Below are positions 13,384-58,842 of a stretch of 58,842 nucleotides of DNA, piece by piece. The stretch's first letter is position 1. Every line of letters starts with the position of its first letter. The notes beneath the pieces were generated by a model. That model had not been told where the DNA came from and searched no databases. It saw only the letters and a list, made by a program, of their open reading frames with translations. The stretch comes from Cyanophora paradoxa CCMP329 (taxonomy: Eukaryota; Plantae; Glaucophyta): the NCBI GenBank assembly GCA_004431415.1, contig QPMI01000504.1:1-58842 (forward strand). Direction: 5' to 3'. The translations under genes and the position numbers were made by a program.

Positions 13384-13386
13384 GGC

Positions 13387-40817: not shown

Positions 40818-41560
40818 GAAAAGAGCGTCCCTCTTGAAGTGCACTCGGCACTCGCCCTTCTTGCAGCCCTCAGACCCAATACTTAAGCGTACCCCGGGTT
40901 CTGTGGTGTGGTAGGTCGGCGGAGCCAGGATGCTTTCCGCAGTGTACAACCTCCTCATGAAGGTGCGCTAGCTACGCCGGAGCTCTCATCCAGCAGCGCA
41001 GTTCCAGCCCGCGTTTGCGCGGCCGGCGCTAAGGAAGGAAGCGCAGAGGAACTCGGTTTACTTCGGAGTCATCCTTACGGGTGCTGTCGTGGGCGACATC
41101 GCTGTTCAGCGCCTCGGCGACGCAGTGTGGGAGAACAACAACAAGGGGGTGCGGACACGCTCGAGCCACGCCACCTCAGCGCTGATCCTCCTTCTTTGCG
41201 CGCCGCAGAAGCTATGGAAGGATCTCGAGACAAAGCTCGCCACCGGAAAGTAGAGTCGCGCCGGTTGGCCGATGGCCGCGCGCCCCAGACATCGTGTGAG
41301 TCACATGTTAATGCACCTCGCTCAGAGCCCGAACGAGAGCGGCGCGTAGCTATCGCCGATTAGGTAGGATGTTTCAAGTCGCAAGGCTAGCGTTCGCGGG
41401 CCGAGCTTTGGGGCCGATCTGCATTTGACGTGACAATCGCGGTATCTGGCTAGCTGTTCTAAACTAACTAGTACTAAAGTAGTACTCAACTAATGATGAG
41501 GGAAGCTAGCCGTGGCGGTTTCTAAACTATCGCCAAGTTGGCTTTCAATGAAACTTGAAA

Positions 41561-42058
41561 CTGCTCTTTCTACGCTACGGGCGCGCCGGACCTCCTACCT
41601 ACAGCGCTTTAACTGTACCCGTGCTGTTAGGGATAGAGCGTAACCCGCAGGGACTGGTGCCCTGATGGGGAAAAGGGGATGGGAGCCTAGCTAGCTACGA
41701 GCCGAGCAGGCGCTTCGCGTCCACGCCCGTGCCGTAGCGGATGAAGGATAATAATAAGCTTGCCAAGTTGCAATTGAGACCTCAACCAACTTTTTTTGGC
41801 AATTAATGACCAATTAATGTCACAGTGTGACTAAGTTACATATATATTCAGGTACCCGGTGACCGGTATACGTACCAGACTCACTGAGCAAAAGTTAGCT
41901 GCAAGATTCTCAAACACTGACTGACAGTTCAACCGTGAACGGTTGCCAATTTGCTCATCAGAGTCAGCTAGCGCTGAACCGTTGACCCATGGGACCCATT
42001 GACCCACAAAACCCCTGGATTGCGATGACGACTAGGGGTTGGACGACGAAGCTGAAGG
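41561..42058 (+). mobile_element. Dispersed repeat family A, copy 3 (internally deleted), next to the viral element
   Basis: 41561-41742 is the reverse complement of 13995-14177, and 41750-42058 matches 30224-30534. Confidence 0.85.
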
Positions 42059-42472
42059 CGACCCCATTGTGATCTGGCCGCCCGCTAGCGCTGCCCAGGC
42101 CCTGAGGGGCCTCTCCACGCTGTGTGCCCGTGCTCCTCGCCAGCCCCAGTAAATCGGGCTACTGGCCGCCTCCTCAGGGCCTTTCGTCGCCTCCACACCC
42201 GGACAGAAACCCCCGTGTCTCCCTCTCCTAGCTAGCACTATATATATATAGGTATATAGGTGGGCTCTTGCCAAGGGTCGAGCTCTCGAGCTTGCCCCTT
42301 CGCTGTCAATGCATTGTTAACCCTCGGAGGTTGATGAGTCACGCGTTGCGGAGGTTGCATTGTTATATTGCATTCGGGGAGGCAGGGGGACTAACACGTC
42401 CAATGTACCCCCCGGGGGCCTCCCGGCCTCTAACTAGGCTCGGACTCTAACTGAATGCTGTACCCCCTGCGG

Positions 42473-43225
42473 TTACTGCCCGAGCCTAGCGAACTTGCGT
42501 AACTCGGCCTCGCCCTGTACCCAGTGACTGGTGTCGTCCATCCATTCGCGTACCTCCCTCTGACGCTTGAGTGACTCACGCTGCTCAGGTGAGGGGGAGG
42601 GGGGGCCGTAGAGGAGGGGCCGCGGCGGGGGTACCATGCCAAAGTTTGCCCACTCGGGGGGTATACCGAATTCACCGTGATCGATTCTCTGAGGCGTGAA
42701 GTACTGGCCGTCGCTCAGCGCCAGGTGGTAGAAGGCGTTTCGCAGTCGTCTGAGGAAGCGGGGCTGCACAGTCTGCGGGTCAAGGCTCTCGAAGCGCCAC
42801 GGTGCCACAAAGTCAATGATACGCTCCTGCACCCGCGCGGGCAGAGCGAGGATCTGGCTCTTGCGGTTCGCAAAGGCCATCCACAGTGCTTGTAGGTCCG
42901 CCCAATCGCCGTTCAGATCCCTGCGTTCTCGCCTGCCATGATTGCGTGGATTGATCGTCATACCCATGAAACGTGCTGCGCCGATGGTGTTTTGATCTGG
43001 AAACTCTTGATCGTCGTTAAACTTATCTCGTATCCAGCGCACGAGGTACAGCACGCGTTCCATAAAGTTCTCCCCGGGCGATCCGCTCCCCGAATCGGGG
43101 CCCATCGCCCATCGCCGCCGGTGCAGATCGGATTGTGCGTCGTCCAAGTCCACGGTCCGCTGTAGGATCTCACCGATGATGGGGCCGTTGTTGTACAGCA
43201 CGTCGGACTCGCGTGTCCGCGCCAT
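42473..43225 (-). CDS. Viral hypothetical protein with F-box-like motif (paralog 1)
   Basis: Intronless ORF from MARTRES. Contains ENFMERVLYLVRWIRDKF and SQILALPARVQERIIDFV. Confidence 0.6.
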   Translation of the reverse strand: MARTRESDVLYNNGPIIGEILQRTVDLDDAQSDLHRRRWAMGPDSGSGSPGENFMERVLYLVRWIRDKFNDDQEFPDQNTIGAARFMGMTINPRNHGRRERRDLNGDWADLQALWMAFANRKSQILALPARVQERIIDFVAPWRFESLDPQTVQPRFLRRLRNAFYHLALSDGQYFTPQRIDHGEFGIPPEWANFGMVPPPRPLLYGPPSPSPEQRESLKRQREVREWMDDTSHWVQGEAELRKFARLGQ

Positions 43226-43344
43226 GCTCGCGGCTCGCTGAGAATATCTACCCGTACCCCCTATCACGTCCACCTCCACGTCAGGCGATTGTTCTCGAAA
43301 ACGGGGTACGCCTCCTCCTCTGGGGTATAGTGCCGACCTTTGCC

Positions 43345-43964
43345 TCACCCGGCAGACGGTTTCGATCGTCCTGCAGCCAGTCGCGCAGTCGCTTGCGCTC
43401 GTTGATGGGGGCCTCGAGTCAAAGGGGGATACGTAGGCGGGGGGTGGGGTGGGGCGGGCGGAAGCTCTTGCCAGCTCCGGGGTACGAGCTCGCGTGGAAT
43501 CTCGAGCTCTGTGTACCGTGAGCCGTCGTACTGTCGGACACCGCCTTCGCCTGTACGCATGTACCACTGTATCTCATTTCGAAGCCCATTGATCACATCG
43601 CCTTCGCGCCCGTCTCTACCTGCGAGTAAGAAGTTCATGATCTTCAATCTGGCCTCGTTCGGCAGACGGGCCACGCGGCTTCTAGGCGACATCAGCGCCA
43701 CGTACAGGGACGTAAGCACACTGCTGAAGTCCCAGTTCCGATCATAGGATGGGGGGCGAGCCTCACGGTATCCCGCAGCCCCTGGGCTGCAACAGGGGCT
43801 AGCCCCCTCAGCGGAAAGGACGACGTTCCTATCCGATTTCGCATCCCCTCCTTGAACTTATCTCGTATCCAATGGGCCAGGCCCCTAACGCGAGTCAGGA
43901 ACTCTTCGGGGCTCGAATCTTCGTCCATCTGCGGGACCGGGCTCGAATCTTCGTCATCCGACAT
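43345..43964 (-). CDS. Viral hypothetical protein with F-box-like motif (paralog 2; one frameshift near 43750-43800)
   Basis: MSDDEDS..EEFLTRVRGLAHWIRDKF, then after the frameshift SRVARLPNEARLKIMNFL. Colinear with paralog 1. Confidence 0.55.
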
Positions 43965-44016
43965 TTGCAATTGCACACAACGAGAAATTCTAAACGCTAC
44001 TGCGAGGCTACGAGCT

Positions 44017-44652
44017 ATGGACCTACAACAGGGGAGCGCGGCGTGGCACGCTGCGCGCCGCGAAAAGCTAACCGCCTCGAACTTTGCCGCCGCGTGCGGC
44101 ATCAACCCGTGGAAATCCAGGGCCCGCCTCTGGGCGGAGCTGAGCGGGATCGCGGAGGAAAACAACTTTGACAACCCTGCCCTAACCTACGGGCACGACT
44201 ACGAGCCCCTCGCGGTCTCTATCTACAAGGCACTGAACGATAACGTGGACATTCAACACACTGGACTGCACGAACACAAAGAAATGCCGTTCCTCGCCGG
44301 GAGCCCCGACGGACTGATAGGAAATGATAGGATTTTAGAGGTGAAATGCCCTTACAAGGGCGAACTTTACGATAGCGTTCCTACCTATTACATGACTCAA
44401 CTTCAGGGCCTGCTGGACATAACGGGCCGCGACTGGGCCGAACTTTTCTGTTTCACGCCTCTGCGCGTGCAAACGTGGTACGTCAGACGGGACGAGAGGT
44501 ACATCGAGCTCATGCGGCGGTGCTTACATCTATTTTGGATGCACGTGAAGGCTGGAACTCCGCCCGAGCCCTACAGCGATCGAATGAAGTCAGAGAACCT
44601 CAGCGAGGAGCAGGCGGCGCTGCGCGAGTTTAAGTCGTACGCCCTCCTCTAG
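44017..44652 (+). CDS. YqaJ-like viral recombinase / lambda-type alkaline exonuclease (PD-(D/E)XK fold)
   Basis: QGSAAWHAARREKLTASNF..ALTYGHDYEP..FLAGSPDGL..LEVKCPY..YYMTQLQGLL; intact and intronless. Confidence 0.93.
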   Translation: MDLQQGSAAWHAARREKLTASNFAAACGINPWKSRARLWAELSGIAEENNFDNPALTYGHDYEPLAVSIYKALNDNVDIQHTGLHEHKEMPFLAGSPDGLIGNDRILEVKCPYKGELYDSVPTYYMTQLQGLLDITGRDWAELFCFTPLRVQTWYVRRDERYIELMRRCLHLFWMHVKAGTPPEPYSDRMKSENLSEEQAALREFKSYALL

Positions 44653-44990
44653 TGTCCCGACCCTCTCAGATATTAATTTAAAGATCTGGGAGGGTCGGGA
44701 CACGTCTCTTGGTCAGACTACTTATGTACGCCCTCCTCTAGTGTCTCGACCCTCTCAGATATTAATTTAAAGATCTGGGAGGGTCGGGACACGTCTCTTG
44801 GTCAGACTACTTATGTACGCCCTCCTCTAGTGTCTCGACCCTCTCAGATATTAATTTAAAGATCTGGGAGGGTCGGGACACGTCTCTTGGTCAGACTACT
44901 TATGTACGCCCTCCCTCCTCTAGTGTCCGGACCTTTCCAATAATCTATAAAGAAAGTAGGGAGGGTCCGGACACGTCTCTTGGTCGGACT
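44637..44990 (+). repeat. Tandem array of 89-bp units (3 near-identical + 1 diverged), each with a 52-bp imperfect palindrome around an AT-rich core
   Basis: Units start at 44637, 44726, 44815 and 44904. Arms GTGTCCCGACCCTCTCAGAT and ATCTGGGAGGGTCGGGACAC flank ATTAATTTAAAG. Confidence 0.95.
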
Positions 44991-45268
44991 CACCGTAGCT
45001 TGGTGTAGCTCAGGCCCAGGCGGGGAAGGCGAGTCTGCAATGAATCAGACCCCACAGGATTTGGTTGAGCTGCTCTTTGCAGGGGGCAGGAAGGCGGCCG
45101 CAGAGGGCTAGGGAGACTAGATCTAATTAGTAATCCCACACCGCGCATGTGCAAGCGACAGAGAACGAAGTGAGTAAATGCAGATCGATGATACGGCAAT
45201 CATGAGTTGTTCAGAAAAGGTCGGGACACATAGAGAGTGCATGCCCTCACTCTCGTCCGCCCTCGCAA

Positions 45269-45318
45269 TGTCCCGACCCTCCCAGATCTTTAAATTAATA
45301 TCTCAAAAGGTCGAGACA
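45269..45318 (-). promoter_or_regulatory. Solo copy of the array palindrome, inverted, downstream of the helicase (half-site at 45211-45229)
   Basis: Its reverse complement is 49/50 identical to 48631-48680. Function (origin, terminator or recombination site) is unknown. Confidence 0.75.
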
Positions 45319-45419
45319 TTCATTGATCATATGCATGACGTCACTTGAATTCGCACGTTCGTATTTACACACTGGCACGCGCATCCCGTTCGCGAAGTCC
45401 ACACTGTGACATCCGACAA

Positions 45420-48400
45420 TCACACGCGCCTGTGAATGAGAGCATAGCAGTCGGAGAAAACGTTGTAAACCTCTGGGAAGCTTGGCGCCATGCCTGCCCT
45501 TGCCTGCTTAGCCTGGCGCTCTACTGCGTCGTCGAGCATGTCTTCCTCCCACGTGATGTAGCGTCGCTTTCGGCTGCCCATTTGCCCTCCGTCCGCGTCG
45601 GAGAAAGCGCGTCTCACTCCGAGGTACTTCTCCAGCAGGTACTTGATGACTTGCCAAGACTGCTGCGAGAGCCGCTTCTTCTCACCGTCCGCTGCATCGA
45701 AGCGGGGCGCGCGCTCGTCCAGACTCTGCAGAGCCGCGTACGCCTCCCGACCCTCCGGCGACGCCAGGGCCGCGTAGGCTTCGTCCGACCACAGAGCACG
45801 CCCCGCGAGCTTTCCATACCCCGCCAGCCGAAGAGTTTCTTGAACAGCGCGACGACCTTCGATACCTTGAGGCGCTCAGCAGTAGGCACGATCTCGGCAA
45901 CGTCCGCGCCATGCTTCAGCACCAGCGTGACCACGGCAGTGAGCGGGATGGAGTAGAACGAATCCCACATCCAGGCGACGTCTCCTTCGGTCAGCTCGCT
46001 CGGATCCTTGGCCAGGAACGCGGCGATCGACGTGCGAGCAAGCGAAGCAACCTTCTCGATGTCCAGCTTAGCGAGAGACTCGCGGGACTGCCTCCAGGCC
46101 AGCACCGTGCTCCACAGATCGACGGGCTCCAGCGCGCCCGCCTCCAGCACGCTCCTGATCTCGCGCAGCCGCTGCTCCTTCTCCTGCTTCGGTCCGCTCG
46201 GGTTTTGATCCTCCGTGACTTGCACGTTCATCAGCGCGCAGGTCGACATCAGCCGCAGGCGCGCTGCCACTGCGAGGCGCCGAGTGGGCATGCCGGCGCG
46301 GCGGCTCCCGCGGTGGCTAGCCTTCAGGTCCAGGTAGCGCTGCATGTCGTCCGAGCTCTCGTCGTCGTCGCTCTCACGCCAGTGCGCAGCCGCCGCGCCG
46401 ACCGCAACCGAGGGCGTCCGGTTCTTGCGCACGGCGACGAGCAGGTGCTCTCCGTCGGGCGTGCTGCGTTTGCGCAGCCTTCTGACTCGAAACAGCAGCT
46501 GCACGATGTCGTCCGCCTCCAGCTGCGCGGGCTCTGCCTGGAACACGCCGTAGACCTTGTCAAAGTGCGCGTCCGAAAAGTCCACGCCTGCCCGAGCGCG
46601 GAAGTTGCGATGAGCACGTCGCAGGCCTTGTACGCGCCCTCCTCAGACACATCGATCGACACGATGCGCACTGGGCCGTCGTTCGTGAAGCGCACGCTCT
46701 TCTCCTTGGCCTGCCCAACGATGAGCCCGATCGTGAACGGTGCGCCGCTGCCGTCCTCGGGCCCTGCCTCGAGCTGAGTCACGTACTGAGCGCCGCCCAG
46801 GCTGAGCTGCTCCAGCGCCTGCTTCGCAATCTTCTCCTGCATCTCGATCGCCTTGGCCGGCGTCTCTGCAATGATCATCGCCCGGCAGCGCCCCGGTCTG
46901 CACAGCGCCATGATGTCCGCCTCGACGTGCGCCGGGCTGTCTGACACGCGCATCTTCCAGTCGCAGGTGCGATGCGAGTTGTACAGGAGCCCCAGGCGCG
47001 CCCCGACCTCCTGCGCCGACTCTGCCAGGTACGCGAGATCGACCGACCGAACGAAGCCGTCCATCGCCACGATGCGCGATGCCTTCATCACGCCGCGCCA
47101 TAGGCCCACGCAGCGCGCGTTTCGAGGCACTGACCGCATACCTAGGTGCAGGCCGGTGGGCTCGAGGGTGCCGCTCGAGGTGAGGTGCTTCGTGAGGGAG
47201 GAGAGCTCGTCCAGCACGACCAGTAGCGGCGCCGTCGACCAGCCCTCCCAGTCCTCGAGCACCTTGTGCAGCGAGTCCCATGTGATGACGACGCACCTGC
47301 ACTCCTCATGGCGGAAGCCCCACTTGCCATGCGATCCCTTTGAGCTCTCCGGTGGCTTCTTGATGTCCATGTAAAGCACGGCGTCCTTTGACAACTCCGC
47401 AGCATCAATGCGACGCTTGAGGTCGCGGGAGAAGGCCCGGCGGCAAGTCACGAGGATCACTCGCCAGCCGCCTGCAAGGGCCGGGTCCAGGTACGCATCG
47501 ATCAGCGCCTGCGTCTTCCCCGTGTTGAGTCCCGAGCAGATGACGTCGACCTGCGGCTGAGCGGATCTCGGGTTCTGCTCCAGCGCCCCGAATGCGGAGG
47601 TAAGGATCTTGCACGAGAGGTGGCGTTCATCCACTGCATTGACGCAAGCCTCCAGGCCCGTCGACTCGAGCGCGATCAGGAGGGAGGGGAGGGCAATGTC
47701 GAAGGCGACAGGCTGCGAGGGATCGGTCACATAGCGGGTCTGTGCCACGCTGCCCGACTCCCCTCCGGTCCCCTCCCCCTCGAGCTCGACTTCAATACCG
47801 TGCGCCTGGATGGAGATTCGAGCCGCCGGCGCCCCCGGCTGACTCCCGCCCAGGACGAGGGTGATGGACCCGTCGGGCTCGACTCCAAGGTGCTGAACGC
47901 GGCGGGCGTCGTGCAGGCCAAGGTCCGCGCGCAGCTCTGCCCCCGCCTTCCAGATCTCGTCCCTCACCGCCTTGTTCTTGCGCAGGCGGTCCAGGAGCCG
48001 CTCCAAGGCCGGCAGGCTTGGGCTCGAATCCAGGAGAGCGCCCGGCTCCGGGATGGGCTTAGCGCGGGGCGCCGAGCTTCTGGATGGAGTGGGGAGGAGC
48101 TCCGCTCGCGGCCCGGGCGCCGGCCCCCGCAGAACGTAGCCCCCGGTGCCATCCACACCGAGCTCCAGGCCGCTCGAGCTCCCAAAGAACCATGCCATGA
48201 GATCGCAAGCCTCCGGGCTCTGTAGGACGTAGGCAGCCTTGAATCCATTATCCAAGGGGCGAGAGAAAGTGAAGCCTCCGAACTTGGTTGCAAAGGCGCA
48301 GGCTGCCGCAGTGCTCGTCTCATCCTCGGCACCCGAGAAGTGGCTGGGGGTGATGCAGGGCGGGTGGAAGACGCAGAAAGCCGTCCCCAGGGTCGGGCTG

Positions 48401-48540
48401 CAGGCCTTCTGGACTTCGACGAGAGGGAATCGAACGAAAAAGCTGCACTCCTGCTCGCTCAGATCTATCTGCTGTACCCCGGGCCCGGGCATACGGGCCA
48501 GGAAGGCGTCGACGTCGAGAGACACGCGTCCGGTTGCCAT
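45420..48540 (-). CDS. SF2 helicase of the herpesvirus UL9 / origin-binding-protein family (frameshifts near 46590 and 45620-45800)
   Basis: Motif I VICSGLNTGKT, Ia VILVTCRRAF, Ib VVITWDSLHKV, II VVLDELSS, III IVAMDGF, V LIATSAL..GVDF and VI QLLFRVRRL. Confidence 0.82.
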
Positions 48541-48630
48541 GGTCGTCTCTCTATAGCTAGGCTTGGAAAATTCTAGATCTACTAGGCTAGTCGACGTCTG
48601 TTGGCTAGCTATAGTCGACGTCTGGACTGC

Positions 48631-48680
48631 TGTCTCGACCTTCTGAGATATTAATTTAAAGATCTGGGAGGGTCGGGACA
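48631..48680 (+). promoter_or_regulatory. Solo copy of the array palindrome, upstream of the helicase
   Basis: TGTCTCGACCTTCTGAGATATTAATTTAAAGATCTGGGAGGGTCGGGACA. Confidence 0.75.
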
Positions 48681-49823
48681 GGCTTTGGTCCGACCTTAAG
48701 CGCTCAACTAGACCCGGTTGACACCGTCTTGATCTCTCCTTCTTGGCGCAGCGGACGATGTGACGCGCAGACCGTCGGCCCGGCGGACGGGGAGGCGCGC
48801 GCGTAGAACTTCGGAAGCGCTAGCCCCTTGCTTGACCGAAGCTTAGAAAGTTTTGAGCGCACGCGAATGCGACACGTGTAGAGAGAAGGCAGAGCGCGCC
48901 GGAGCTAGCTTGCGCGGCCGAGCGCTCGACCGCCTTTGCTCCTAAGCTCAGAAAGTTTTGGGCTCACGCGGTTGCTCCACGTGTTTCGACTCAAAACACA
49001 GTACCCCAACCCGAAAAAAAGCGCCCGGGCAGCGCATCTCGCAGCGCCCGGGCCCAGCGCTCCTTGCAGCACTTGCCAGAGGCACTAGCTTGCATTCCGC
49101 TCAGCCCGGAGAGCCGCCGCCTCGCTCCTTTCGATTCGGAGGTGCGCCTCACTTCGCAACCTCTTTCTCCGCACCACGGCTAGCTCCGGACCTCAGATTT
49201 TGGGCGCTGGAAAGCTCTCTCGACGCCGCACTCACGCCGCCACGCGCAGGGTCGCTCGCGCCGGCCGCGGACCTTCGAAAGCTCGATGGCGCCCGAGCCG
49301 GAGCACTCCGCCGCATCCCGCAGGTGCCAGCTCGCTCTCTTGCCGCTCTATCCCTTGCATTTAGCACCTAGAACATGTCCCGCAACCTCGCGCTCGATTC
49401 GCCCGCGTCCGCTGACATTTGGTCTCTGAGCAGGTGCCGAGATTGGCCGCCGCGCCTTCCGCAACTCGAGCCGACGTTCGCGGCGACTTGCGCACGCTTC
49501 TAGATCTCGTTCTCAAGCCCGCGCATCGATTCGGCGGCTCCGGCTCGCCTCCCCGCGCCTCCAGCCCCGCGCCCCACACCCGTTCTTGTCCTAGCTAAGC
49601 CCTCCCTTGTCCGCAGCCAGTCGCGGGCTACGCGCATCGCGGATAGCATCAGTGGAGCTACGTTTCAGCGCTGGACGCAGGCCCGCCCGCCCAATCCTCC
49701 CACCTCCCGCTCGCAGCACGCTCACTGGGCCGCAGGCAGCTTCGCGGGGAGCCGCTGGATTCGAAGCCGCGCACCTTCCCCGCCCGTCCCGACGTCGTAC
49801 GCGCTAACGTCGCCCGCGCCGCA

Positions 49824-51055
49824 GGTGGCCGCCAGGCCTCCTGCATCCAGTCCTTCGAGCCGGTGTGGCTGCGGGCGAAGCGCCTCGCCTTCTGGCAGGA
49901 GACGGCCTCCTGCACCCTCACCCGCTTCGTCATCACCCACTGCGTCGTCGACCCCACCACCTACCTCGTCGGCTCGGAGACGGAGGGCGGCATGACGAGC
50001 GTGGCGGGCATCTGCGAGTACATCTCGCGCACGGAGGGCCCGGACGCCGCCGCCGCCGTCGCCGCCGACGTCGAGAACGGCGAGCTGGACGAGACCATCG
50101 CCGCCTTCGGCCCCAGGTGCCGCCTCTTCTCCTACAGGGCCGGCGGCATCTGGCAGACCTACATCCGCGGCATCGTCCCCAAGGCCCCCCTCTCCCTCGG
50201 CGAGAGCCAGCCGGCGCTGCAGGCCATCCAGTTCTTCGAGCCGGCGGACCCGGAGAACGGCCCCTTCCCCGTCAAGGCCTCGATCCGCGGCAGGGGCAAG
50301 CGCACCCGCAACTCGGCCCCCGCCTTCGTCCCGCCCCCGCCGCCCTCCTCCTCGCACGGCCAGCAGCACGCCGGCCAGCAGCACGCCGGCCAGCAGCGCA
50401 TCGACGAGATGCTGCCGCGCCAGGTCCGGCCCCGCGTACCCCCCGCCTTCCCTGTACCCCCCCTCCCCTCGCCCCCCTCCTGATCCAAGGGCAGGGTACC
50501 CCGGCGAACGGCGGCGCGGGCCCGAGCGGCTACGGGAGCTCGGCCCCCTCCGACGGCGCCGGCCCCAGCCCCGTCCCCTTCTCCCTCGCCGACCGCAGCC
50601 CCGTCCCCGCCGCCTTCGCCGCCGCTCCCGACCCGGACGCGTTCATCCCCGGCCCCGGCGCCATCCTCAGCGCGATCATGGGCTTCGGGGCCCAGCAGGG
50701 GGCCGAGCGGCGGGCGCTGGCGGCGCGCCAGGCGCGCGAGGCGGAGGAGCGGCGCCAGGCCCTCTGGGCCCAGCGCCTCCAGCGCACCCTCGCCTTCCGC
50801 GCCGAGCTGGAGGCGGGATTCCGCGCCCGCCAGATCTCCGGTGCGGAGGCCTCGGAGACTTGGCGGGCGTTCGAGGCGGAGACGGCGGGGCTGGCGAAGA
50901 CCCTCGCCCAGCCCTACCGGCGCGTGGCCGTCCCGCAGTCCTACGCGCGGCGGGCGACGCTGGAGGCCTCGCGGGCGGAGATCGACGCGGCGGAGGAGCA
51001 GGCGGAGCGCGAGGAGGCCGAGGACAACGCGCGCTTCCGGCACCTCCACCACTGA
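49824..51055 (+). CDS. Hypothetical protein in the viral element, apparently spliced; 5' exon(s) not located
   Basis: Two strongly GC3-biased frames (49863-50423 and 50495-51055) are joined in phase by a GT..AG intron ending at 50494. A branch point and acceptor (CTAAC..CCGCAG) lie at ~49804-49823. Confidence 0.6.
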
Positions 51056-51103
51056 GGCCTCGAGGCGGTATTTTTTCTCAACCCCTTCCAATTCGGTCTC
51101 GCG

Positions 51104-51295
51104 ATGGCCCTCGCTGACAGCTATCCCCCGCATTACTCGCTAGGAGCCCTCGCCGCGACCCTCACCTGGCTCCTCGGCGGCACGCCCACGGCCTCGGCCG
51201 TCATCGGCGTGGGCTTCGGCTACGCCGCCAAGACCCTCTACGCCCCCGGCTCCGTCTCGATGGCGACGGCCGGCATGCGCCCCGCCGGGCGTTAA
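51104..51295 (+). CDS. Small hydrophobic viral membrane protein (63 aa)
   Basis: ATG preceded by a TTTTCT motif; two hydrophobic stretches; coding-like codon bias. Confidence 0.55.
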   Translation: MALADSYPPHYSLGALAATLTWLLGGTPTASAVIGVGFGYAAKTLYAPGSVSMATAGMRPAGR

Positions 51296-51402
51296 CTCTC
51301 CCTTTTCAAAGTTCCATTCCCCCCTTTCCCTTTTCAAAGTTGCGACGTCCTTTTGAGTCCGTTGGCATTTAAATTTTCTTCATCGTCTGTACACGTCTAA
51401 AC

Positions 51403-51900
51403 ATGCCCAACGCCGTAGAGAAGCTGTTGTGTACGGTGTTCAAATCGGACTCGCGCTGCAGCAAGATCGGCGAGGCTGCCAAGGGCGGGGGCGGGGCGAA
51501 GGCCGGCGGCGGGGCGGAGGGGCCTAAGATAAGGGGCGCGGACCCGGCGCCGCCGGCGCTAAAGTCGATTAAGGCTGCGGGCAAGGGCCGCGGCGTCGGG
51601 CCCCTGCCCCTCGTGGCGATCGCCCCGGGCCAGCGCGAGGCGGCGCACGCGGCGACGGCGGCGCTGGCCTCGCAGCAGCAGAGGGAGGGGGCGCCGCGCC
51701 TGAGCGCCGGCCTCTGGTCGCAGCCTGCGCCCGCGCGCGAGTACGGCGTCAGCGCTTACTTCGACGGCGCGAACGAGCTGAGCCGCCAGGAGATCTGGGC
51801 CTGGGAGGCGCGGCGCGCGGTCGACGGGCACCTGCCGTTGCTCGTGGCGCTCGGCGGCTCGCTCCTCATGGTCTGGTACCTGCGCGGCTTCGCGATTTAG
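51403..51900 (+). CDS. Viral hypothetical protein with C-terminal TM helix
   Basis: 165 aa ending LPLLVALGGSLLMVWYLRGFAI; bounded by AT-rich gaps. Confidence 0.6.
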   Translation: MPNAVEKLLCTVFKSDSRCSKIGEAAKGGGGAKAGGGAEGPKIRGADPAPPALKSIKAAGKGRGVGPLPLVAIAPGQREAAHAATAALASQQQREGAPRLSAGLWSQPAPAREYGVSAYFDGANELSRQEIWAWEARRAVDGHLPLLVALGGSLLMVWYLRGFAI

Positions 51901-51929
51901 ATAGATTTTCGAAGCGCTAGCTAGTAGAG

Positions 51930-52256
51930 ATGAGCTGGCTCGACGCGCTGCTCACCAAGACCTTTGGGCCCAAGGGCGCGCCGCGGCTGCAGTTCGGTGA
52001 GCTCAACGCCGCGATCGGCGCCACAGTCGAGATGAAGAACCGCGAGAACGTGCTGCGCGGCGACGGAGGCGCGTGGGCGGACATTGCGGCGGGCGCGCTG
52101 GGCTCCGCACTCACCGCACCGGGCAAGGCGGGCCGCGCGCTCACGGACGTGGCCGAGCGCTTCTGGCACTGGCTCAAGGTTGCCGTGGTCATCGCCGCAG
52201 CGGTTGTGGCGGGTCTCCTGGTGCTCGAGGCTCGCGCGCTATTTTCTAAACGCTAG
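51930..52256 (+). CDS. Viral hypothetical protein with C-terminal TM helix
   Basis: 108 aa ending WHWLKVAVVIAAAVVAGLLVLEARALFSKR. Confidence 0.65.
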   Translation: MSWLDALLTKTFGPKGAPRLQFGELNAAIGATVEMKNRENVLRGDGGAWADIAAGALGSALTAPGKAGRALTDVAERFWHWLKVAVVIAAAVVAGLLVLEARALFSKR

Positions 52257-52272
52257 GTAAAGCGAGCGAACC

Positions 52273-52677
52273 ATGCCCCGCGGCGGCTCTTCCCCCCGTG
52301 TCTCCTTCGCTGAGAACGAAGTCGCCGCTACCCCCCTGGAGCCCGGCGTCAAGCTGGAGCGCGCGAACGCAGTCTCCGTCAAGAAGGCCAAGCGCGCGCT
52401 GGTTCTAGAAGTCCCCAAGACCGCCTCGCAGTTCCTTCCCACGTCCGAGTACGACGGCACGGAAGATACGGAGAAGGTTGCATTCAACAAGCGCAAGACG
52501 TACAAGGCGATACGCGAGGGCCAGCTGCTGCCCACGGACGCGGTTCCCGGGCTGCCGGGCACCACGGCCGGCGAGCTGCTCGTGCGCAACCTGCGCCTGC
52601 AGTACGTCTCCCGCCTCCGCCGCTCCAAGGCCAAGAAGGCGCGCCTGGACTCGGGCGATAGCAGCTCTAGCTCGTAG
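52273..52677 (+). CDS. Viral hypothetical basic protein (134 aa)
   Basis: ATTTTCTA motif at 52241 upstream of the ATG; coding-like codon bias. Confidence 0.6.
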   Translation: MPRGGSSPRVSFAENEVAATPLEPGVKLERANAVSVKKAKRALVLEVPKTASQFLPTSEYDGTEDTEKVAFNKRKTYKAIREGQLLPTDAVPGLPGTTAGELLVRNLRLQYVSRLRRSKAKKARLDSGDSSSSS

Positions 52678-52693
52678 GGCTCTGTACTCAATA

Positions 52694-52978
52694 CTACCAG
52701 TTCCTGTTCCTATCCCAGAGCACGACTCGGGTAAAGGGCACGGTCATAGCGAACATGAACTCGGCAAACTTGGAGAAGTTCATGAGGGTCCCTAGGCGCG
52801 GGTCCTCCCAGTAGATAGCTTCGCGCAGGGACTCGTAGATGCGCATGAGGGAGCGCTCGTTCTCGGTCGCGAAGGCGTCGGAGGGCTCGTCGGGATCCGG
52901 ATCCGAGAGCTCCGAGTACTCGTCCGAGCTGCCAGCGCTCTCGACGCCTGCGGCCGGGTCGGGCGAGGGGTCAGCCAT
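52694..52978 (-). CDS. Viral hypothetical small acidic protein (94 aa)
   Basis: Acidic N-terminus, then F..ENERSLMRIYESL...NFSKFAEFMF. ATTTTCTA lies ~20 nt upstream. Confidence 0.6.
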   Translation of the reverse strand: MADPSPDPAAGVESAGSSDEYSELSDPDPDEPSDAFATENERSLMRIYESLREAIYWEDPRLGTLMNFSKFAEFMFAMTVPFTRVVLWDRNRNW

Positions 52979-53004
52979 TCTTTGCTGGTAGAAGGGCTAG
53001 AAAA

Positions 53005-53346
53005 TCACGGGCGCCGGTACTCCATCGAGTCGCCGCGCCAGTACTTGTTGCCGGAGGCGAGCAGCTTCATCGGCTCGCCCGTCGAGTCGTGCGTCCAGGC
53101 CTCGCCCGTCCAGACGGCCGTGCCGCCGTCCTCTAGCTTGAGGCGGTGGCCCGCCTCGAGCCGATCGCCGTTGAGCATGCGGCCGGCCATGAGCGCCAGG
53201 TCCCACTCGGTGAGGCCGCGCTGCTCTTCGGGGGTGAGGCCGCGCTCGACGCGCTCGGGCTGGCGCGCCTCGCGCTCCATGCGGCTGAGGCCCACCAGGA
53301 AGAAGATCGGCAGCGCAAAGGCCATGAGATCTAGCAGGGCCTCCAT
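53005..53346 (-). CDS. Viral hypothetical protein with N-terminal TM helix (113 aa)
   Basis: MEALLDLMAFALPIFFLVGL..; TTTTCTAA ~11 nt upstream. Confidence 0.6.
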   Translation of the reverse strand: MEALLDLMAFALPIFFLVGLSRMEREARQPERVERGLTPEEQRGLTEWDLALMAGRMLNGDRLEAGHRLKLEDGGTAVWTGEAWTHDSTGEPMKLLASGNKYWRGDSMEYRRP

Positions 53347-53356
53347 TGGGCAAGAC

Positions 53357-53649
53357 TTAGAAAAGGTTCCGGGCCAGGCCCGAGAGCTGCGGGCCCAGGC
53401 GCCGGGCGGCGTAGTAGAGCGCGGCGGCCGCGGCGGCCAGGATCAGAAGGCGCGGCGGGCCGCGCGCGGGCTCCTCCAGGGTCAAGTCCACGGTCTCTGG
53501 CTCGCGGGCCGGCGTCGCCAGGATCTCGGGCTCGGAGCTAAGGGACTTGGGCCCGCGGCGGCGGCGCTGCTTGGGGCGGAGGCGGCGGCGGCGGCGGAGA
53601 GAAGGTCCTCGGGCTCCTGCTTGATACCTGCGCAGTCAGTAAAGTCCAT
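53357..53649 (-). CDS. Viral small Pro-rich protein with C-terminal TM helix (one frameshift; missed by the ORF track)
   Basis: MDFTDCAGIKQEPEDLL, frameshift in a CCG run, then PPPKQRRRRGPKSL..RLLILAAAAAALYYAARRLG..RNLF*. AATTTTCC upstream. Confidence 0.5.
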
Positions 53650-54336
53650 GCTTGCTGGGTACCTCGGAAAATTGTGGGAGGTGCCCGGCGGCTGCGAACG
53701 TAGGATGGGGGGAGAAGTGACGCGGACGCGAATACGTCATAGTCGAATACGTCATAGTCCAAAACCTGGACTCGGGACTCGGCCCGGGCCCTGGGGAGGG
53801 GGGTACATGTTATGTCCAAATGTCCAAATGTCCAAATGTCCAAATGTCCAATTGAAAGGTTGCGGAGGTTGCGGACGCGTCACAAATACGTCATAGTCGA
53901 ATACGTCATAGTCCAAAACCTGGACTTGGGACCTGGGCCCAGACTCTCGCCAAGTTTCAAATAATAATACTGTACCCCTGTTATCTGCAAGCTTATCTTA
54001 TCGTTATCGTGTCACCTATCCTATCCCGATCCTATCGCTATCCTTTCGCGATCGCTTGACTACACTATTGCATTCATTGCTTTTGAATGTAGTTAATGTC
54101 ATAGCAACTTGAACATGATGTCATGATGATTTCAAGTTAAATACCGGGGTACGGTGTTTTGTTCAAGTCTCTTTTTTTTACCGGCAGGGCCCGGGCCGAG
54201 TCCCGAGTCCAGGTTTTGGACTATGACGTATTCGACTATGACGTATTTGTGACGCGTCCGCAACCTCCGCAACCTTTCAGTTAATTAATTAAGCACTGGG
54301 CTAGCGCTAGGCTAGCTAGATATCGATACCAGCTAG

Positions 54337-54765
54337 CTAGCTCAGCTCTACCCTGCCCAAGTTGATGGTATCTAGCAGCGCCTGCTCCTCTAAGTCTGCA
54401 CCGCCTCCTCCTAGCGCTAGCGCTAGCTCGATACCGCCTCCAGACTTGATCTCCCTTGGCTTCAGCCACCGAAGGGGCTCAGGCCACCTCCTCCTGGTGA
54501 AGCCGGTATCGTTGCGCTTGTCCAGCTTGAGGTAGCGGTAGGGCGCCGGCGCCGGCCAGTCGGGCCTGTGGCTGCTGGCCTCCTTGGCTATGTCCTTGGG
54601 CCTACGCGGAAGCAGGTCGGCCTTGGCCTTGGCCTTCTGCAGAGGGCCCAGCGCCTTGAACTTCGGTGCCTTCGTCGCCGGCAGGGCCTTCGGCTGAGGC
54701 TTCGGTGCCTTCTGCGCCTTCGTCTTCGGCTGCGGCTGCGGCTTTAGCTGCTTCGATTTCGGCAT
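54337..54765 (-). CDS. Lys/Pro-rich basic protein (possible DNA-condensing/core protein)
   Basis: MPKSKQLKPQPQPKTKAQKAPKPQPK..; TTTTCTCA motif ~16 nt upstream. Confidence 0.5.
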   Translation of the reverse strand: MPKSKQLKPQPQPKTKAQKAPKPQPKALPATKAPKFKALGPLQKAKAKADLLPRRPKDIAKEASSHRPDWPAPAPYRYLKLDKRNDTGFTRRRWPEPLRWLKPREIKSGGGIELALALGGGGADLEEQALLDTINLGRVELS

Positions 54766-55002
54766 ACTTCTTGCTCATAAATGAGAAAAGCGCCTCGAAG
54801 TCGGCTTTTATCTCCTCCTTGGTCCAGGATGTCATCTGAGTCGGGTCACCTGAGAACGGCGCATCGAACGCCACGTGGAGCGATTTGCAGGCCTGAGCTA
54901 TCATTGGCTCGGCCAGGCCAGCTCGATCAGCTGAAGGTAGATACTGAGGGCCTTGTCGAGCTTGGCGCCCTGGGAGACTAGCTGGGAGATGGCGGGCTCC
55001 AT
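54602..55002 (-). CDS. Viral hypothetical protein with acidic tail (one frameshift near 54915)
   Basis: MEPAISQLVSQGAKLDKALSIYLQLIEL, then LAEPMIAQACKSLHVAF..KEEIKADFEALFSFM. ATTTTCTG upstream at 55031-55039. Confidence 0.55.
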
Positions 55003-55256
55003 GGTACTGGATTAAGCAGCTAGCCGGGGTTCAGAAAATGGCGCCAAGTCCGAGCTTATTTTTTTACCGGCGGGGCCTGGGCCGAGTCCCGAGTCCAGGT
55101 TTTGGACTATGACGTATTCGACTATGACGTATTCGCGTCCGCGTCACTTCCCCCCCCCTCTTCAGGTGAGCGCTCACCTGACCCTCACCTGAACGGCCTC
55201 AAAACCGCAGCCGCGCCGCGCCCTCGCTCACACTTCACAGCCAAGAGAAATCAAGA

Positions 55257-55547
55257 ATGTGCGCCCCCAAGTACGAGACCTGCTGCCTGACCTTCGGCAT
55301 CTTCGAGTACGAGGCCATGGACGAGGATCTCGACGAGAACGGCGAGATCTGCTTCAACTACTGCAGGCTGCTGCGCAACATCTCGCTGGAGTGCCGCAAG
55401 GGCGACTGCTTCCAGCACATCATGCTCAATCCCGCCAAGAACGAGATCACCCTGTACGCCGTCGCCAGCCCCAGCGCCAGATTTAGACTCTCGAATATTC
55501 GCGTAGCCGTGATTGAGGCTCTCCCCCTCCCCAGTGAGACGAATTGA
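55257..55547 (+). CDS. Viral hypothetical Cys-containing protein (96 aa)
   Basis: Intact ORF with strong GC3 bias; no family recognised. Confidence 0.6.
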   Translation: MCAPKYETCCLTFGIFEYEAMDEDLDENGEICFNYCRLLRNISLECRKGDCFQHIMLNPAKNEITLYAVASPSARFRLSNIRVAVIEALPLPSETN

Positions 55548-55661
55548 ACACGTGTTTTACCTGAATCACCTGAGCGCTCACCCGAGGTCAGCCTGAAGTC
55601 AGGTGGGGCGGCCTTAAATATTTTCTAGCGCTAGGCTGATCGCACACTAAGCTCAGACAAC

Positions 55662-56405
55662 ATGGCCACCGTCCGCAACGCCACCGAGATCGACCCCGCC
55701 AAGCTCGCCTTCGAAATCGATGCCAACGGCCGCATCAAGGCCAAGTACGACGGCCTGCAGGGCCTCATGATGTACGCGCCGCCCATGGTCACGATCAACC
55801 CGTGCATCAACACCGAGCAAGGCAAGGCGTGGAGCGACGAGAAGAAGGCCTTCGTCATGGAAGAAAACGGCGGATTTTACACGCTGGACCTCACGATCTC
55901 AGCGCCGTCGACGGCCAGACGAACCCAGCCGCGGACGAGTTCCTCAAGCTGCTGGAGGCCCTGGACGCGAAAATTCTGCGAGTTCGTGCAGCAGAACCAG
56001 GCCAAGCTCAAGGTCTCGCCCGGGCGCGCCCTCTCCAAGGATCAGATCTCGTGCTGCAGACGCCCAGCGTGCGCATCAGGTCGACAAGGAGTCGGGCCAG
56101 GCCTTCTACAAGTACCTCAACATGCGCATCCGCACGCAGACGATGGCGGGCAAGCGCAAGACGATCCCAGTCGTCGACATGTCCAACTACCTCATCACCG
56201 AGCGCGCCACCATCGGCACGGAGACCTGGTGGCGGCCCTCGTTAAAATCGACACCGCCTACGCCATCCCCGAGGGCAAGTTCGGCCTCAAGTGGTCCTTC
56301 CTCGCCGTGCAGCAGTGCAAGGTCGGCGCCTTTCGCTTCGCCGGCCGCACGCCCGAGCTGCCTTCAAGCCCTACGACAACGAGGCCGATTTCGAGCCCTA
56401 CCTAA
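55662..56405 (+). CDS. NCLDV-type single-stranded DNA-binding protein (T7 gp2.5-like OB fold), several frameshifts
   Basis: Reconstructed sequence LMMYAPPM..FYTLDLTI..DEFLKLLEALDAKFCEFVQQN..PSVRIRVDKESG..GDLVAALVKIDTAY..GKFGLKWSFLAV follows the motif order of Nucleocytoviricota SSBs. Confidence 0.72.
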   Translation: MATVRNATEIDPAKLAFEIDANGRIKAKYDGLQGLMMYAPPMVTINPCINTEQGKAWSDEKKAFVMEENGGFYTLDLTISAPSTARRTQPRTSSSSCWRPWTRKFCEFVQQNQAKLKVSPGRALSKDQISCCRRPACASGRQGVGPGLLQVPQHAHPHADDGGQAQDDPSRRHVQLPHHRARHHRHGDLVAALVKIDTAYAIPEGKFGLKWSFLAVQQCKVGAFRFAGRTPELPSSPTTTRPISSPT

Positions 56406-56479
56406 ACCCCGAGTCTATGTACACCACCCCCATGCAGTAGTTTAGACGAATAAATTGTAAATTCTCTGGTGCAATTGAT

Positions 56480-57293
56480 TACAAGCGTTTACAATCAGAG
56501 GCCGTTGAACTTGCCGCCCACCGCCCTGGCTCCGCCGCCGTCGAGGCCGCCGCCTCCGTCACCTCCTTCATCATCTCCGGGTTCGCGTTGGCCGCGTGCA
56601 CCGCCAGCACCGTCTGCACCAGGGCCATCCCCAGCGCGCCTCGGGCCCAGGGTCACGTAGCGCGAGTACTTAATCACCAGCTCCTCTAAGATCGGCTGCA
56701 CCTGGTCCATGGAAGAGAGCGTCGCCTGCCCGAGCCCGTCTAACTTCAGGCCGATCGGATCGTACGCTTTGTTAAGTGCTCCAGCGAGTGCATGCCCGCG
56801 ATCAGAAAGAGGCGCGCCGCCTCCAGCGAACCCCGCGTGCTCAGCTCGCGCTGAATTTCCTCGTACTCTTCTTCAGCTCGTCCAGCGGCGTGGCGAGGCT
56901 CAGCTTCTTCGTGGACGTCAGCTCGCCCCGAACGAGCGCCTGTACTGCGCGATCTGCCGCAGAACCTGCTTCTTCTCGTCCACGTCCACCTGCGCCTCGT
57001 CGCGCGGCCTCTCCTGCAGGTCGATCCCCAGCGCCTTTTTCACGCTCTGCTCCTTCTTCTTCGTCATTTCGATGTGCTCCTGCACGCTGAAGCTCGCGCC
57101 CTTGCTCGGCGCCGTCGGCGGCACCGGGGCCCGTCGCCCGGTAGCGACGTCTTTGTCGGCCTTCGGCGCCTTCTCGCCCTTTTCCTTGCCTTCCTTCGCG
57201 GGGCGGCCCTTCTTCCGAGGCTGCGGGATCCCCACCGGGTTCGGCCCGTCCACGGCCAGCGCGTCGAAGCCCAGCATCGCCGAGGGGGTCCAT
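56480..57293 (-). CDS. DUF5767-like conserved Nucleocytoviricota protein, several frameshifts; 3' end approximate
   Basis: Reconstructed C-terminus EHLTKAYDPIGLKLDGLG..MDQVQPILEELVIKYSRYVTLGP(E)ARLGMALVQTVLAVHAAN fits the recalled DP..lkLdG..EL..KY...PE.rL...H..N pattern. Confidence 0.65.
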
Positions 57294-57329
57294 TGGTTAC
57301 GCTTGCCCCTTAGAAATTTCCTCGGATTT

Positions 57330-57659
57330 TTACTCCGACGTCAGCTCGACGAAGAGCTCGATGTAAAGCCACAGTTCTCGCGCAGCTCGGGCCCGCTCCC
57401 GTTAGAAGAGCGAGCGCACGGCCGAGGCGTACTCCTGCGGCAGCTTCTCGAAAAACTCCGTCGTCCCGCGCCTAATTAATTCGGCCTCCGCGTTGATGTG
57501 CCTCCTAAAGAGAACGATGACCGCCGTGGCGCCTATGCCGCGCAGCGACTGGATCTGCGCCCGCACCCCCGGCTCCTTGGCCTCCGGCTCCAGCAGGTCG
57601 AGGAAGCGGCCCCAGCGCGCCTCGATCTGCTCGCCCAGCGTCGCCTCCGTCGCTGCCAT
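57330..57659 (-). CDS. Small helical viral protein (frameshifted near 57400 and 57375)
   Basis: RFLDLL..IVLFRRHI..ELIRRGTTEFF, then GPELRE(K)LWLYIELFVELTSE*. The I..FF and lW.Y pattern is recalled from small NCLDV proteins. Confidence 0.55.
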
Positions 57660-57674
57660 GTCGCTAAGGGGGCT

Positions 57675-58794
57675 TTAGAAATTAGCGGGCCAGGATGCCG
57701 CCGCCTTTTGGTACATTTCCGCCATGCGTGCGTTGGTTTCCCGTCGGATGTTCTTCTGTCTGTCCTGAGTTCCACGACCATGGCTTGGAATGCCTTTTGG
57801 ATGTCGAACTGATCGTCGGTTTCCATCCCTGCGACAGTACCCTCCTGTCGCACCTGGTTGAGAGCTTCGCGCTGATCCGAGGTTGTAAAGTCTTTCCCTA
57901 CGCGATTGTTGGGTTCACCACCCTCGGCAGCAGATTCTGGTCCGCATACGGCCATGCCGTCGGCAGCGCAGGGCCCGCGTGCCTTGCTGGTCCATGAGCA
58001 TTGCTCCGAAGGATTGCCCTTGCTGAAGTCGACGTCGTTCCGTCCGTACGGCCTGTTGTGCTCGCTGCTGATGTTCGCCGTCTGCGCGTTGAACATGGGC
58101 GAGAGGTCGGGCGTGTAGCCGGCGCGGAAGCCGCCCTTGCCGGCAGCATCGACGGGGCCGTAGCGCCCGGCGGGCCCCAGCAGGTTCTCCTTCTCGATTC
58201 TTCCATCGTCTTGATCCAGCCGCGCTCGCGTGCCCACTTCATGACGAGATCGTCGTAGTTCATCGGGAAGAAAACTTCTGGTACTTATCGAAACGCTGAA
58301 TTTCGATATCCTGCTCGATCATGTTCGTAATTCGCTCGAGCAGCTCGGGGTAATATTCCTCGAGCATTTTAGCCACGCCGGGCTGCTTCAGGTCGAAGGC
58401 CGTCATGGCCCACTGGTCGAAATCGCGAATCATGATTTCCTTCCGCAGCGCGAACGCATTCTCGACGTCCTCTTCGTTTGATCTGGCGGTTGGGATAGGC
58501 ATTCTGCAGCTGCTGCCGAATGCCCATCCGCATCAGCTTCTCCATCTGCGGGGTGTACTTCATCGCGGGCAGGGTCTTCGTGGGAAGGGCCGTCAACCCG
58601 AGGCCCCGCGCCTGATCCTCCGGCGTGTAGATGTCCGCCTTGCCCGGATCTGTGACGTGCACCTCGGGTAGGATCGTGCCGGGCGCATACTTCTCAATGA
58701 TGCCCGTCACCTCGCCCTTCAGGTCGTTCTTCAGCGACTGGCGCTGCTTCTTAGAGCCCTCCCCGATGTCCATCATGGAATGGCCCTTCGTCAT
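57675..58794 (-). CDS. Viral hypothetical protein (several frameshifts; ends approximate)
   Basis: Successive coding frames include RDFDQWAMTAFDLKQPGVAKMLEEYYPELLERITNMI and PMNYDDLVMKWARERGWI. Confidence 0.55.
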
Positions 58795-58842
58795 CGTGCC
58801 TCGGTTAGGATCCCAGTGGGAAAATTTATTGGTTCACATCGG

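Follow-up and report, generated by a model that had tools for sequence, protein, structure and literature searches.

Mriyaviruses (class Mriyaviricetes) are small Nucleocytoviricota, recognized by a genome of 35–45 kb and by forming a clade in capsid and ATPase trees. It has been proposed that no living group is closer to the ancestor of giant viruses, and their replication is known from sequence alone. In the “Gamadviridae” (the Pleurochrysis endemic viruses and NDDV; PMC11253617), the helicase is the superfamily 3 (SF3) protein SF3_hel2, whereas a superfamily 2 (SF2) UL9-like helicase is found in 9 of 60 representative mriyavirus genomes, only in the yaravirus group and fused to an intact archaeo-eukaryotic primase (AEP) (Yutin et al.); the SF2 and SF3 types exclude one another in mriyaviruses according to the preprint of Yutin et al. 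Here, we analyzed the contig QPMI01000504.1 of the glaucophyte Cyanophora paradoxa CCMP329 (58,842 nucleotides, hereafter the window), in which positions ~42,060–58,842 likely represent, from their gene content, the left part (~17 kb) of an endogenous virus resembling mriyaviruses. This element joins gene sets published as branch-specific, namely the gamadvirus single-stranded DNA-binding protein (SSB) and the SF2 helicase of yaravirus type.

The embedding of such viruses in a glaucophyte genome is already in preprint, as Mriyaviricetes-related regions in a Glaucocystophyceae assembly (10.1101/2025.04.19.649669, Fig. 5f). These regions belong to the same virus class and host class and are probably this very family; the sentence of text devoted to them holds no gene anatomy, copy number, helicase type or origin. 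In C. paradoxa itself, 366 capsid hits forming two new clusters were listed by Bellas et al. (2023; PMC10120064, Table S2), and methylated “giant endogenous viral elements” (GEVEs) were described by Sarre et al. (PMC12344493). The Phaglo-G/PaeNCLDV/PgeNCLDV elements of Phaeocystis (10.1101/2022.07.28.501842; PMC12480563) are also GC-rich and small, resemble nucleocytoplasmic large DNA viruses (NCLDVs), come from algal assemblies, measure 47–54 kb and have some core genes absent, but they have haptophyte hosts, an SF3 helicase in Phaglo-G and few described copies. Because mriyavirus-related glaucophyte regions and integrated haptophyte relatives are thus in print, the novelty of the present element is reduced. 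Cyanophora does not appear in the journal supplement of Yutin et al. that was searched, and a literature search with most subscription journals outside its scope returned no paper on the genes, helicase or palindromes of this family; other Cyanophora elements are treated in PMC12220804 and PMC8502044. Part of what has been described in the C. paradoxa genome as “giant virus” regions, or as repeats of unknown kind, may be explained by this family.

Gene content and relationship to gamadviruses

Intron-rich host genes extend from the telomere to ~42.1 kb and are followed, up to the end of the window, by compact open reading frames (ORFs) without evident introns that fill 42,473–58,794. A preliminary description of this DNA, made without database searches, had already pointed to compact, mostly intronless, GC-rich ORFs, and the GC content per kb is indeed 55–77% in the element vs 48–63% in the host flank, a modest contrast. 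The join between host and virus was read from the assembled contig alone. A host interspersed repeat (41,749–42,058, no strand), 99% identical to 30,223–30,532, diverges at 42,059, and since it stops sharply at 42,058 the left edge of the element lies at or right of 42,059; a 4-mer host/virus composition model gave no finer junction position.

Protein families were scanned with Pfam in about 58 of the 135 listed frames and with PHROGs in 28. The four proteins named in the preliminary description were all recovered: an unbroken YqaJ/PDDEXK exonuclease (44,017–44,652, + strand; Pfam YqaJ, E 2.7e-28), a UL9-type helicase, a DUF5767 protein (56,495–57,293, − strand; E 2.1e-06 for the window piece and 2.7e-13 for an unbroken copy) and an NCLDV-type SSB (55,662–56,440, + strand). 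The SSB had no Pfam match and was recognized by its predicted fold, which matches T7 gp2.5 (E 4e-08), African swine fever virus CP312R, the phage Enc34 SSB and many NCLDV proteins; the model used was built from an alignment of 31 relatives (predicted local distance difference test, pLDDT, 82.5) instead of the single sequence (pLDDT 34.6). PDB sequence searches gave no significant match. As the preliminary description had noted, no protein-primed polymerase (pPolB), integrase or tyrosine recombinase is visible; polymerase, integrase and tyrosine recombinase families, as well as RNA polymerase, had no match in the scanned frames. Likewise, the window scans, which cover the left ~17 kb of the element, revealed none of the traits of Polintons and Polinton-like viruses (pPolB or a polymerase-helicase fusion, an RVE integrase or tyrosine recombinase, terminal inverted repeats).

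The relationships of the element were mainly revealed by the SSB. A search of 1.84 billion representatives returned 38 matches, divided into 7 near-copies, 29 relatives (23–36% identity) and 2 spurious matches; P0136 and P0144 from this search were rejected as repeat proteins. One relative led to 51 IMG/VR loci on contigs of 4–42.7 kb, where a YqaJ relative is present in 49, DUF5767 in 22 and Mriya_51 in 23 of the 51, counts in which the SSB is present by construction, the loci reach 10 kb from it and missing genes often correspond to contig ends. These loci have one common gene order and encode an NCLDV capsid, A32 ATPase, VLTF3 and A22 resolvase. The order is that of Pleurochrysis endemic virus 2 in Table 1 of Yutin et al. 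(PMC11253617), and Table S1 of the same paper lists two of these contigs among its gamadvirus representatives. On the basis of this order, DUF5767 corresponds to Mriya_48, a predicted envelope protein, the gene at 57.7–58.8 kb (57,682–58,794, − strand; profile match and alignment) to Mriya_51, the SSB to PEV_26 and YqaJ to the PDDEXK nuclease. In Yaravirus, Mriya_51 is abundant in the virion.

Profiles of the four genes, YqaJ included, scored 170, 104, 84 and 30 bits (Mriya_48 103.8, PEV_26 SSB 83.7 and Mriya_51 29.5, the last vs a shuffled maximum of 7.6). Two further matches are weak: a broken PEV_20-like small gene (57,330–57,659, − strand; 8.2–13.6 bits vs a shuffled maximum of 4.5) in the same slot as in gamadviruses, so that the order Mriya_51, PEV_20, Mriya_48 is kept, and a 94-aa ORF (52,694–52,978, − strand; 12.1 bits vs 4.2) that would be PEV_34 or PEV_35 by gene order (520 shuffles in both cases). 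The earlier statement that most other ORFs are orphans stands for the many without a family match, while two to three of these supposed orphans are mriyavirus genes. The YqaJ protein is 39–40% identical to the gamadvirus copies vs 27–31% for the best 12 of 354 phage records. Pattern scans found no close free relative for the SSB (in viral contigs and metagenomes), the helicase alignment, the capsid-Mriya_51 model or the palindrome, and the scan with YqaJ found one locus, 27% identical. In the unrooted SSB tree, the algal protein occupies a long branch (3.3 changes per column) outside a dense gamadvirus cluster; five short or spurious rows (P0136, P0144, P0146, P0149, P0152) and 37 of the 51 viral SSBs were omitted from this tree.

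On these comparisons, gamadvirus contigs are the closest identified relatives, outside the host, of YqaJ, SSB, Mriya_48 and Mriya_51, in line with the earlier suggestion of a mriyavirus/yaravirus-like or new lineage. The element shares with the “Gamadviridae” (PMC11253617) these four genes, weakly PEV_20 and PEV_34/35, the order around Mriya_48, an NCLDV-type capsid and the lack of a polymerase in the scanned frames. It differs from them in its SF2 UL9-type helicase, found here in place of SF3_hel2, a capsid of about 370–400 aa instead of 515–690 aa, identities of only 22–40%, an otherwise rearranged gene order without Mriya_50 at its customary place, many orphans and a high-copy endogenous state. 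With the Yaraviridae that carry SF2_hel, it shares a UL9-related SF2 helicase located C-terminally in a larger protein, Mriya_48, Mriya_51 and the PDDEXK nuclease; these viruses, whose helicases were compared with ours by description only, have an N-terminal AEP primase that was not recognized here, and they lack both PEV_26 SSB and PEV_20, whereas the SSB is present in the element. The element leans to the gamadvirus side rather than to Yaravirus, the helicase excepted. Membership of the class Mriyaviricetes is likely, given an NCLDV-type capsid (in another copy), Mriya_48, Mriya_51, the PDDEXK nuclease and the C-terminal SF2 helicase.

The capsid gene

The preliminary description had named the lack of a virion module downstream, combined with clustering of the proteins with cellular or Polinton homologs, as an argument against its reading; a capsid gene was found next to Mriya_51 in another copy, which answers the objection about the virion module. 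In the gene model P0187, about 400 residues are fused in front of Mriya_51. Residues 1–372 match Pfam Capsid_N below the cut-off (E 0.001), and the capsid part matches the gamadvirus capsid profile with 84% probability over 225 columns and resembles, by features (0.98), NCLDV capsid clusters of about 394 aa, in which only 10–18% of members carry the Pfam family. As the fused model implies that the capsid gene and Mriya_51 are adjacent and on the same strand, the capsid gene likely starts near the right edge of the window, and a double jelly-roll capsid gene is likely to lie just past it. One of the capsids of Bellas et al. (tig00020936:8,432–9,370; PMC10120064) is NCLDV-like and of a second type. 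The same contig also carries the SSB and the 108/134-aa genes of the element; by eye, this capsid is different from that of P0187, and it is either a second capsid of the same virus or part of a neighboring element.

The UL9-type helicase and its palindromes

The helicase gene (45,420–48,540, − strand; two single-base frameshifts) encodes about 1,030 aa. Its Pfam match to Herpes_ori_bp passes the cut-off (E 1.4e-06), and among the profiles NCBIfam CyRepA1 fits it best (E 4e-13, below cut-off); the protein is closer to this cyanobacterial plasmid Rep family than to the herpes family. The SF2 part is C-terminal and the N-terminal ~310 aa are of no recognized kind: Pfam and NCBIfam gave no AEP primase match for this protein, and no conserved acidic motif was seen by eye. 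Searches by tblastn matched no plasmid or phage, and neither the 132 viral loci nor two whole gamadvirus-like records yielded a relative. In P0004, a relative of the 108-aa ORF is fused to the helicase, so that its neighbors differ between copies.

Six palindromes of ~50 bp, whose GC-rich arms flank an AT core of 12 nt, all lie within 800 bp of the helicase gene. Four of them form an array after YqaJ (44,637–44,990, no strand; 3.9 copies of an 89-bp unit), the fifth is inverted and located just downstream of the helicase gene (45,269–45,318, − strand), being 98% complementary to the sixth, which lies upstream of the helicase start (48,631–48,680, + strand). Three array copies were folded (z −8.8, −8.1 and −4.4, with none of 200 shuffles as stable), together with the sixth copy (z −7.0) and the weaker fifth (z −2.9); four of the five folded copies are more stable than all 200 shuffles. 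The arm motif is absent from 37 kb of host flank. These results come from repeat comparison, folding and an arm-motif scan, which were used instead of a generic hairpin scan that missed two of the six palindromes and listed five host hairpins.

The herpes oriS consists of two inverted origin-binding protein (OBP) boxes around an AT-rich spacer (PMC12543377), and the palindromes look like an origin of this type, the array being the candidate site. The herpes simplex UL9/oriS system resembles the element in its Herpes_ori_bp SF2 helicase, its SSB and the inverted arms around an AT-rich spacer, but has another virion and another SSB family, and no viral polymerase or primase was seen here; the likeness is an analogy, and binding is predicted. 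The helicase-palindrome pair nevertheless offers a concrete case for the study of origin function.

Copies in the Cyanophora genome

Related copies, which the preliminary description proposed to look for, are abundant. Eight of the queried ORFs of the window (five of six and four of ten queries, nine in total with the 108- and 134-aa ORFs counted apart) are identical to EukProt sequences, and the other members of those clusters are C. paradoxa gene models. The search with the helicase gave 11 clusters with 28 sequences (46–99% identity) and that with Mriya_51 gave 12 with 30, every one of them from the C. paradoxa proteome, whereas the SSB search gave 12 clusters, 11 of them from this proteome (37 sequences) and one metagenomic. 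This metagenomic SSB (P0021), on a 3.4-kb contig, is 88% identical to the algal SSB and is a close relative outside the proteome set. A search of the Atlas with a 90-aa piece of Mriya_51 gave no usable match.

Gene models of the element occur on at least 56 distinct contigs, of which 33 carry models from at least two gene families and 13 from at least three; the figure of 56 is a lower bound on contig names, and contigs may overcount insertions. On one contig, the consecutive models g11929–g11937 keep the order of the window and hold Mriya_48, a 142-aa ORF, the SSB and the 113-, 94-, 108/134- and 165-aa ORFs. The helicase copies (P0001–P0011) group at about 46–53%, 70–88% and 93–99% identity, and these distinct groups suggest that several virus lineages entered the genome. 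On tig00000342 (g24258–g24269), the SSB, Mriya_48 and Mriya_51 are followed by a capsid-Mriya_51 model and part of Mriya_48 in mirrored arrangement, with five gene numbers separating the two Mriya_51 genes, as a head-to-head pair or inverted duplication; this could represent a hairpin-type replication junction or an assembly artifact. With a family so uniform (near-identical) and so high in copy number in an alga that can be cultured, dozens of junctions are available for studying entry without a known integrase.

When compared with the unbroken gene models, the window copy carries 22 single-base shifts (18 losses and 4 gains) in four genes, with 2 in the helicase, 6 in the SSB, 7 in DUF5767 and 7 in Mriya_51, and no in-frame stop in any of the four. 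Their identity to the unbroken copies is 98–99.8% for the helicase (647 of 648 residues over its last 650 aa), the SSB (249 of 254) and DUF5767, and 81% for Mriya_51. YqaJ and the 250-aa ORF at the left end have no frameshift, and the density increases toward the right end of the window. Because the shifts are single-base, free of in-frame stops and set in sequences of high identity to unbroken models, they look like uncorrected long-read errors in a repeat rather than decay; the assembly behind the named C. paradoxa gene models was made from PacBio RSII reads with Canu (PMC6704402). The preliminary description was silent on these frameshifts, on the palindromes and on the multi-copy state.

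Replication and integration

We consider it probable that the element is an integrated mriyavirus-like virus which relies on a host polymerase for nuclear replication, opens its palindromes with the UL9-type helicase and enters the chromosome without an integrase, through recombination or break repair. The first step, nuclear replication by the host polymerase, is quite likely, as it would follow the model proposed for mriyaviruses (Yutin et al., preprint). There is about an even chance that the inverted arms are bound by the helicase, which then opens the 12-nt AT core, and that the SSB covers the strands, in the manner of UL9 and ICP8 at the herpes oriS. Exonucleases of the lambda family carry out resection and gp2.5 carries out annealing. 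With slightly less assurance, a little under even, YqaJ would resect ends and the T7-type SSB would anneal them; this would prime copying by recombination and supply ends for host repair to join to chromosome breaks. The preliminary description had likewise suggested that an exonuclease, SSB and helicase set could support recombination-dependent replication and integration. The copies would likely have been built up by repeated infection or reactivation by several virus lineages.

Several points weigh against this account. The capsid link comes from one fused gene model. A32 ATPase, VLTF2, VLTF3, RuvC, Mriya_1 and Mriya_50 have no profile match in the window, which represents about half of the genome, and the same is true of HUH (best E 1.3, with a profile of eight gamadvirus HUH proteins), while an integrase or HUH gene could lie to the right of it. 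No terminal repeat or target-site duplication was seen for the element. Stem-loops also serve as HUH rolling-circle origins. The SSB tree carries a long-branch warning and, having no outgroup, a root that is not fixed, and uncollapsed haplotypes may inflate the contig counts. Profiles from the neighboring gamadvirus clusters (HUH_long, PEV_12, PEV_14, PEV_15, PEV_22 and PEV_27) also had no match in the window, and PEV_8 is outside those loci.

It is unlikely, in our view, that the unseen right part encodes an HUH endonuclease, tyrosine recombinase or RVE integrase which catalyzes insertion, in which case the palindromes would be stem-loops nicked by HUH or would play no part. Conservation of HUH among mriyaviruses has been described (Yutin et al., preprint), the NCLDV-like Zora/VC102, VC134 and VC218 often carry RVE or a tyrosine recombinase (Bellas and Sommaruga, 2026), and so very high a copy number points to an active route; furthermore, since gamadvirus HUH genes are located about 6 kb beyond Mriya_48, position alone would be compatible with such a gene. 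Nevertheless, apart from the missing HUH match, integration genes are reported as absent from mriyaviruses (Bellas and Sommaruga, 2026), mobility and integration genes are described as rare in endogenous Nucleocytoviricota regions (10.1101/2025.04.19.649669), and the palindromes are clustered around the helicase gene.

This clustering could also be read differently, with the helicase and its flanking inverted palindromes as a separate mobile cassette that replaced or supplemented the virus's own helicase. The 98%-complementary 50-bp inverted pair bounding the gene, the absence of a relative from the viral loci and gamadvirus-like records, the plasmid Rep family as best profile and the varying neighbors would all fit such a cassette. 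We regard it as improbable, as helicase models share several contigs with other genes of the element, SF2 UL9-like helicases exist in nine published yaraviruses, tblastn found no plasmid or phage match and no transposase was seen.

It is very improbable that the join at ~42.1 kb is an assembly artifact or that the copies are free viral genomes or redundant contigs: the frameshift density rises to the right and the window ends within the element, but gene models on at least 56 contigs, three papers that describe capsid genes or regions of viral origin for this species or its class, and the sharp cut of the host repeat at 42,058 speak against it. Finally, an origin as a piece of some large endogenous member of the giant viruses (Megaviricetes), as the GEVE name given to methylated C. 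paradoxa viral clusters (Sarre et al., PMC12344493) and the closeness of the SSB fold to mimivirus-like proteins in BFVD might suggest, is extremely improbable, since the relatives of the SSB, YqaJ, Mriya_48 and Mriya_51 are on contigs of 4–48 kb with gamadvirus gene order, Mriya_51 and PEV_20 are mriyavirus genes and no polymerase or RNA polymerase was found in the scanned frames.

Beyond the integrase-free virus that we favor, a broader proposal is possible but doubtful: the family may be a third mriyavirus branch, in which the HUH/SF3 rolling-circle module was lost in favor of a herpes-style UL9 helicase with palindromic origins of the virus's own as its targets, forming integrase-free, capsid-encoding proviruses that integrate by recombination at dozens of glaucophyte loci and would be culturable and inducible in an axenic alga.

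Remaining genes and host flank

The first gene of the element is a 250-aa orphan (42,473–43,225, − strand), identical to a host-proteome gene model in a cluster of six, with no Pfam, PHROG or NCBIfam match and with relatives in none of the 132 viral loci. It is followed by a 115-aa orphan ORF (43,345–43,692, − strand), also without a match in Pfam, PHROGs and NCBIfam, and by a short partial paralog of the 250-aa orphan (43,692–43,964, − strand; 15 of 35 residues identical, pairwise E 5e-06). On the other side of the helicase, six orphan ORFs run on the + strand (49,647–50,483; 50,678–51,055; 51,104–51,295; 51,403–51,900; 51,930–52,256; 52,273–52,677). Three of them have hydrophobic stretches, none matches a Pfam or PHROG family, and the last three belong to clusters of 10–11 gene models. 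A 113-aa orphan with an N-terminal hydrophobic stretch (53,005–53,346, − strand) belongs to a cluster of 15 gene models, and a Cys-containing 96-aa orphan (55,257–55,547, + strand) lies upstream of the SSB in several fused gene models.

Between these two orphans, four repeat units of ~88 bp form two inverted pairs (53,704–55,160, no strand), each unit with a doubled 15-mer that has 8 matches vs a chance mean of 0.04. The units are unrelated to the ~50-bp palindromes, enclose two short ORFs (54,337–54,765 and 54,602–54,904) and could be a second origin, a promoter array or an invertible segment. Matches in antisense frames at 43,695–44,186, 44,338–44,523 and 56,661–57,476 were set aside because they overlie real genes, as was one out-of-frame slice among the profile-scored sequences. 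No Rfam family was found in 41,000–58,842 and no tRNA in the window. As the window ends inside the element, the contig probably breaks in a repeat.

In the host flank, the telomere repeat occupies positions 1–4,933 (~842 copies of a 6-bp unit), and the viral part is located ~37 kb from the chromosome end. A THOC7-like host gene (Pfam match below cut-off) is found at 40.3–41.0 kb. The host repeat family forms blocks of 98–100% identity at 13,383–14,177, 29,870–30,532 and 41,561–42,058, the third of which ends beside the virus. The host gene at 30,700–35,900 (− strand), which we take by eye to be a tetratricopeptide (TPR)-repeat protein kinase, is interrupted by many short introns and contains nine in-register repeats of ~33 bp.

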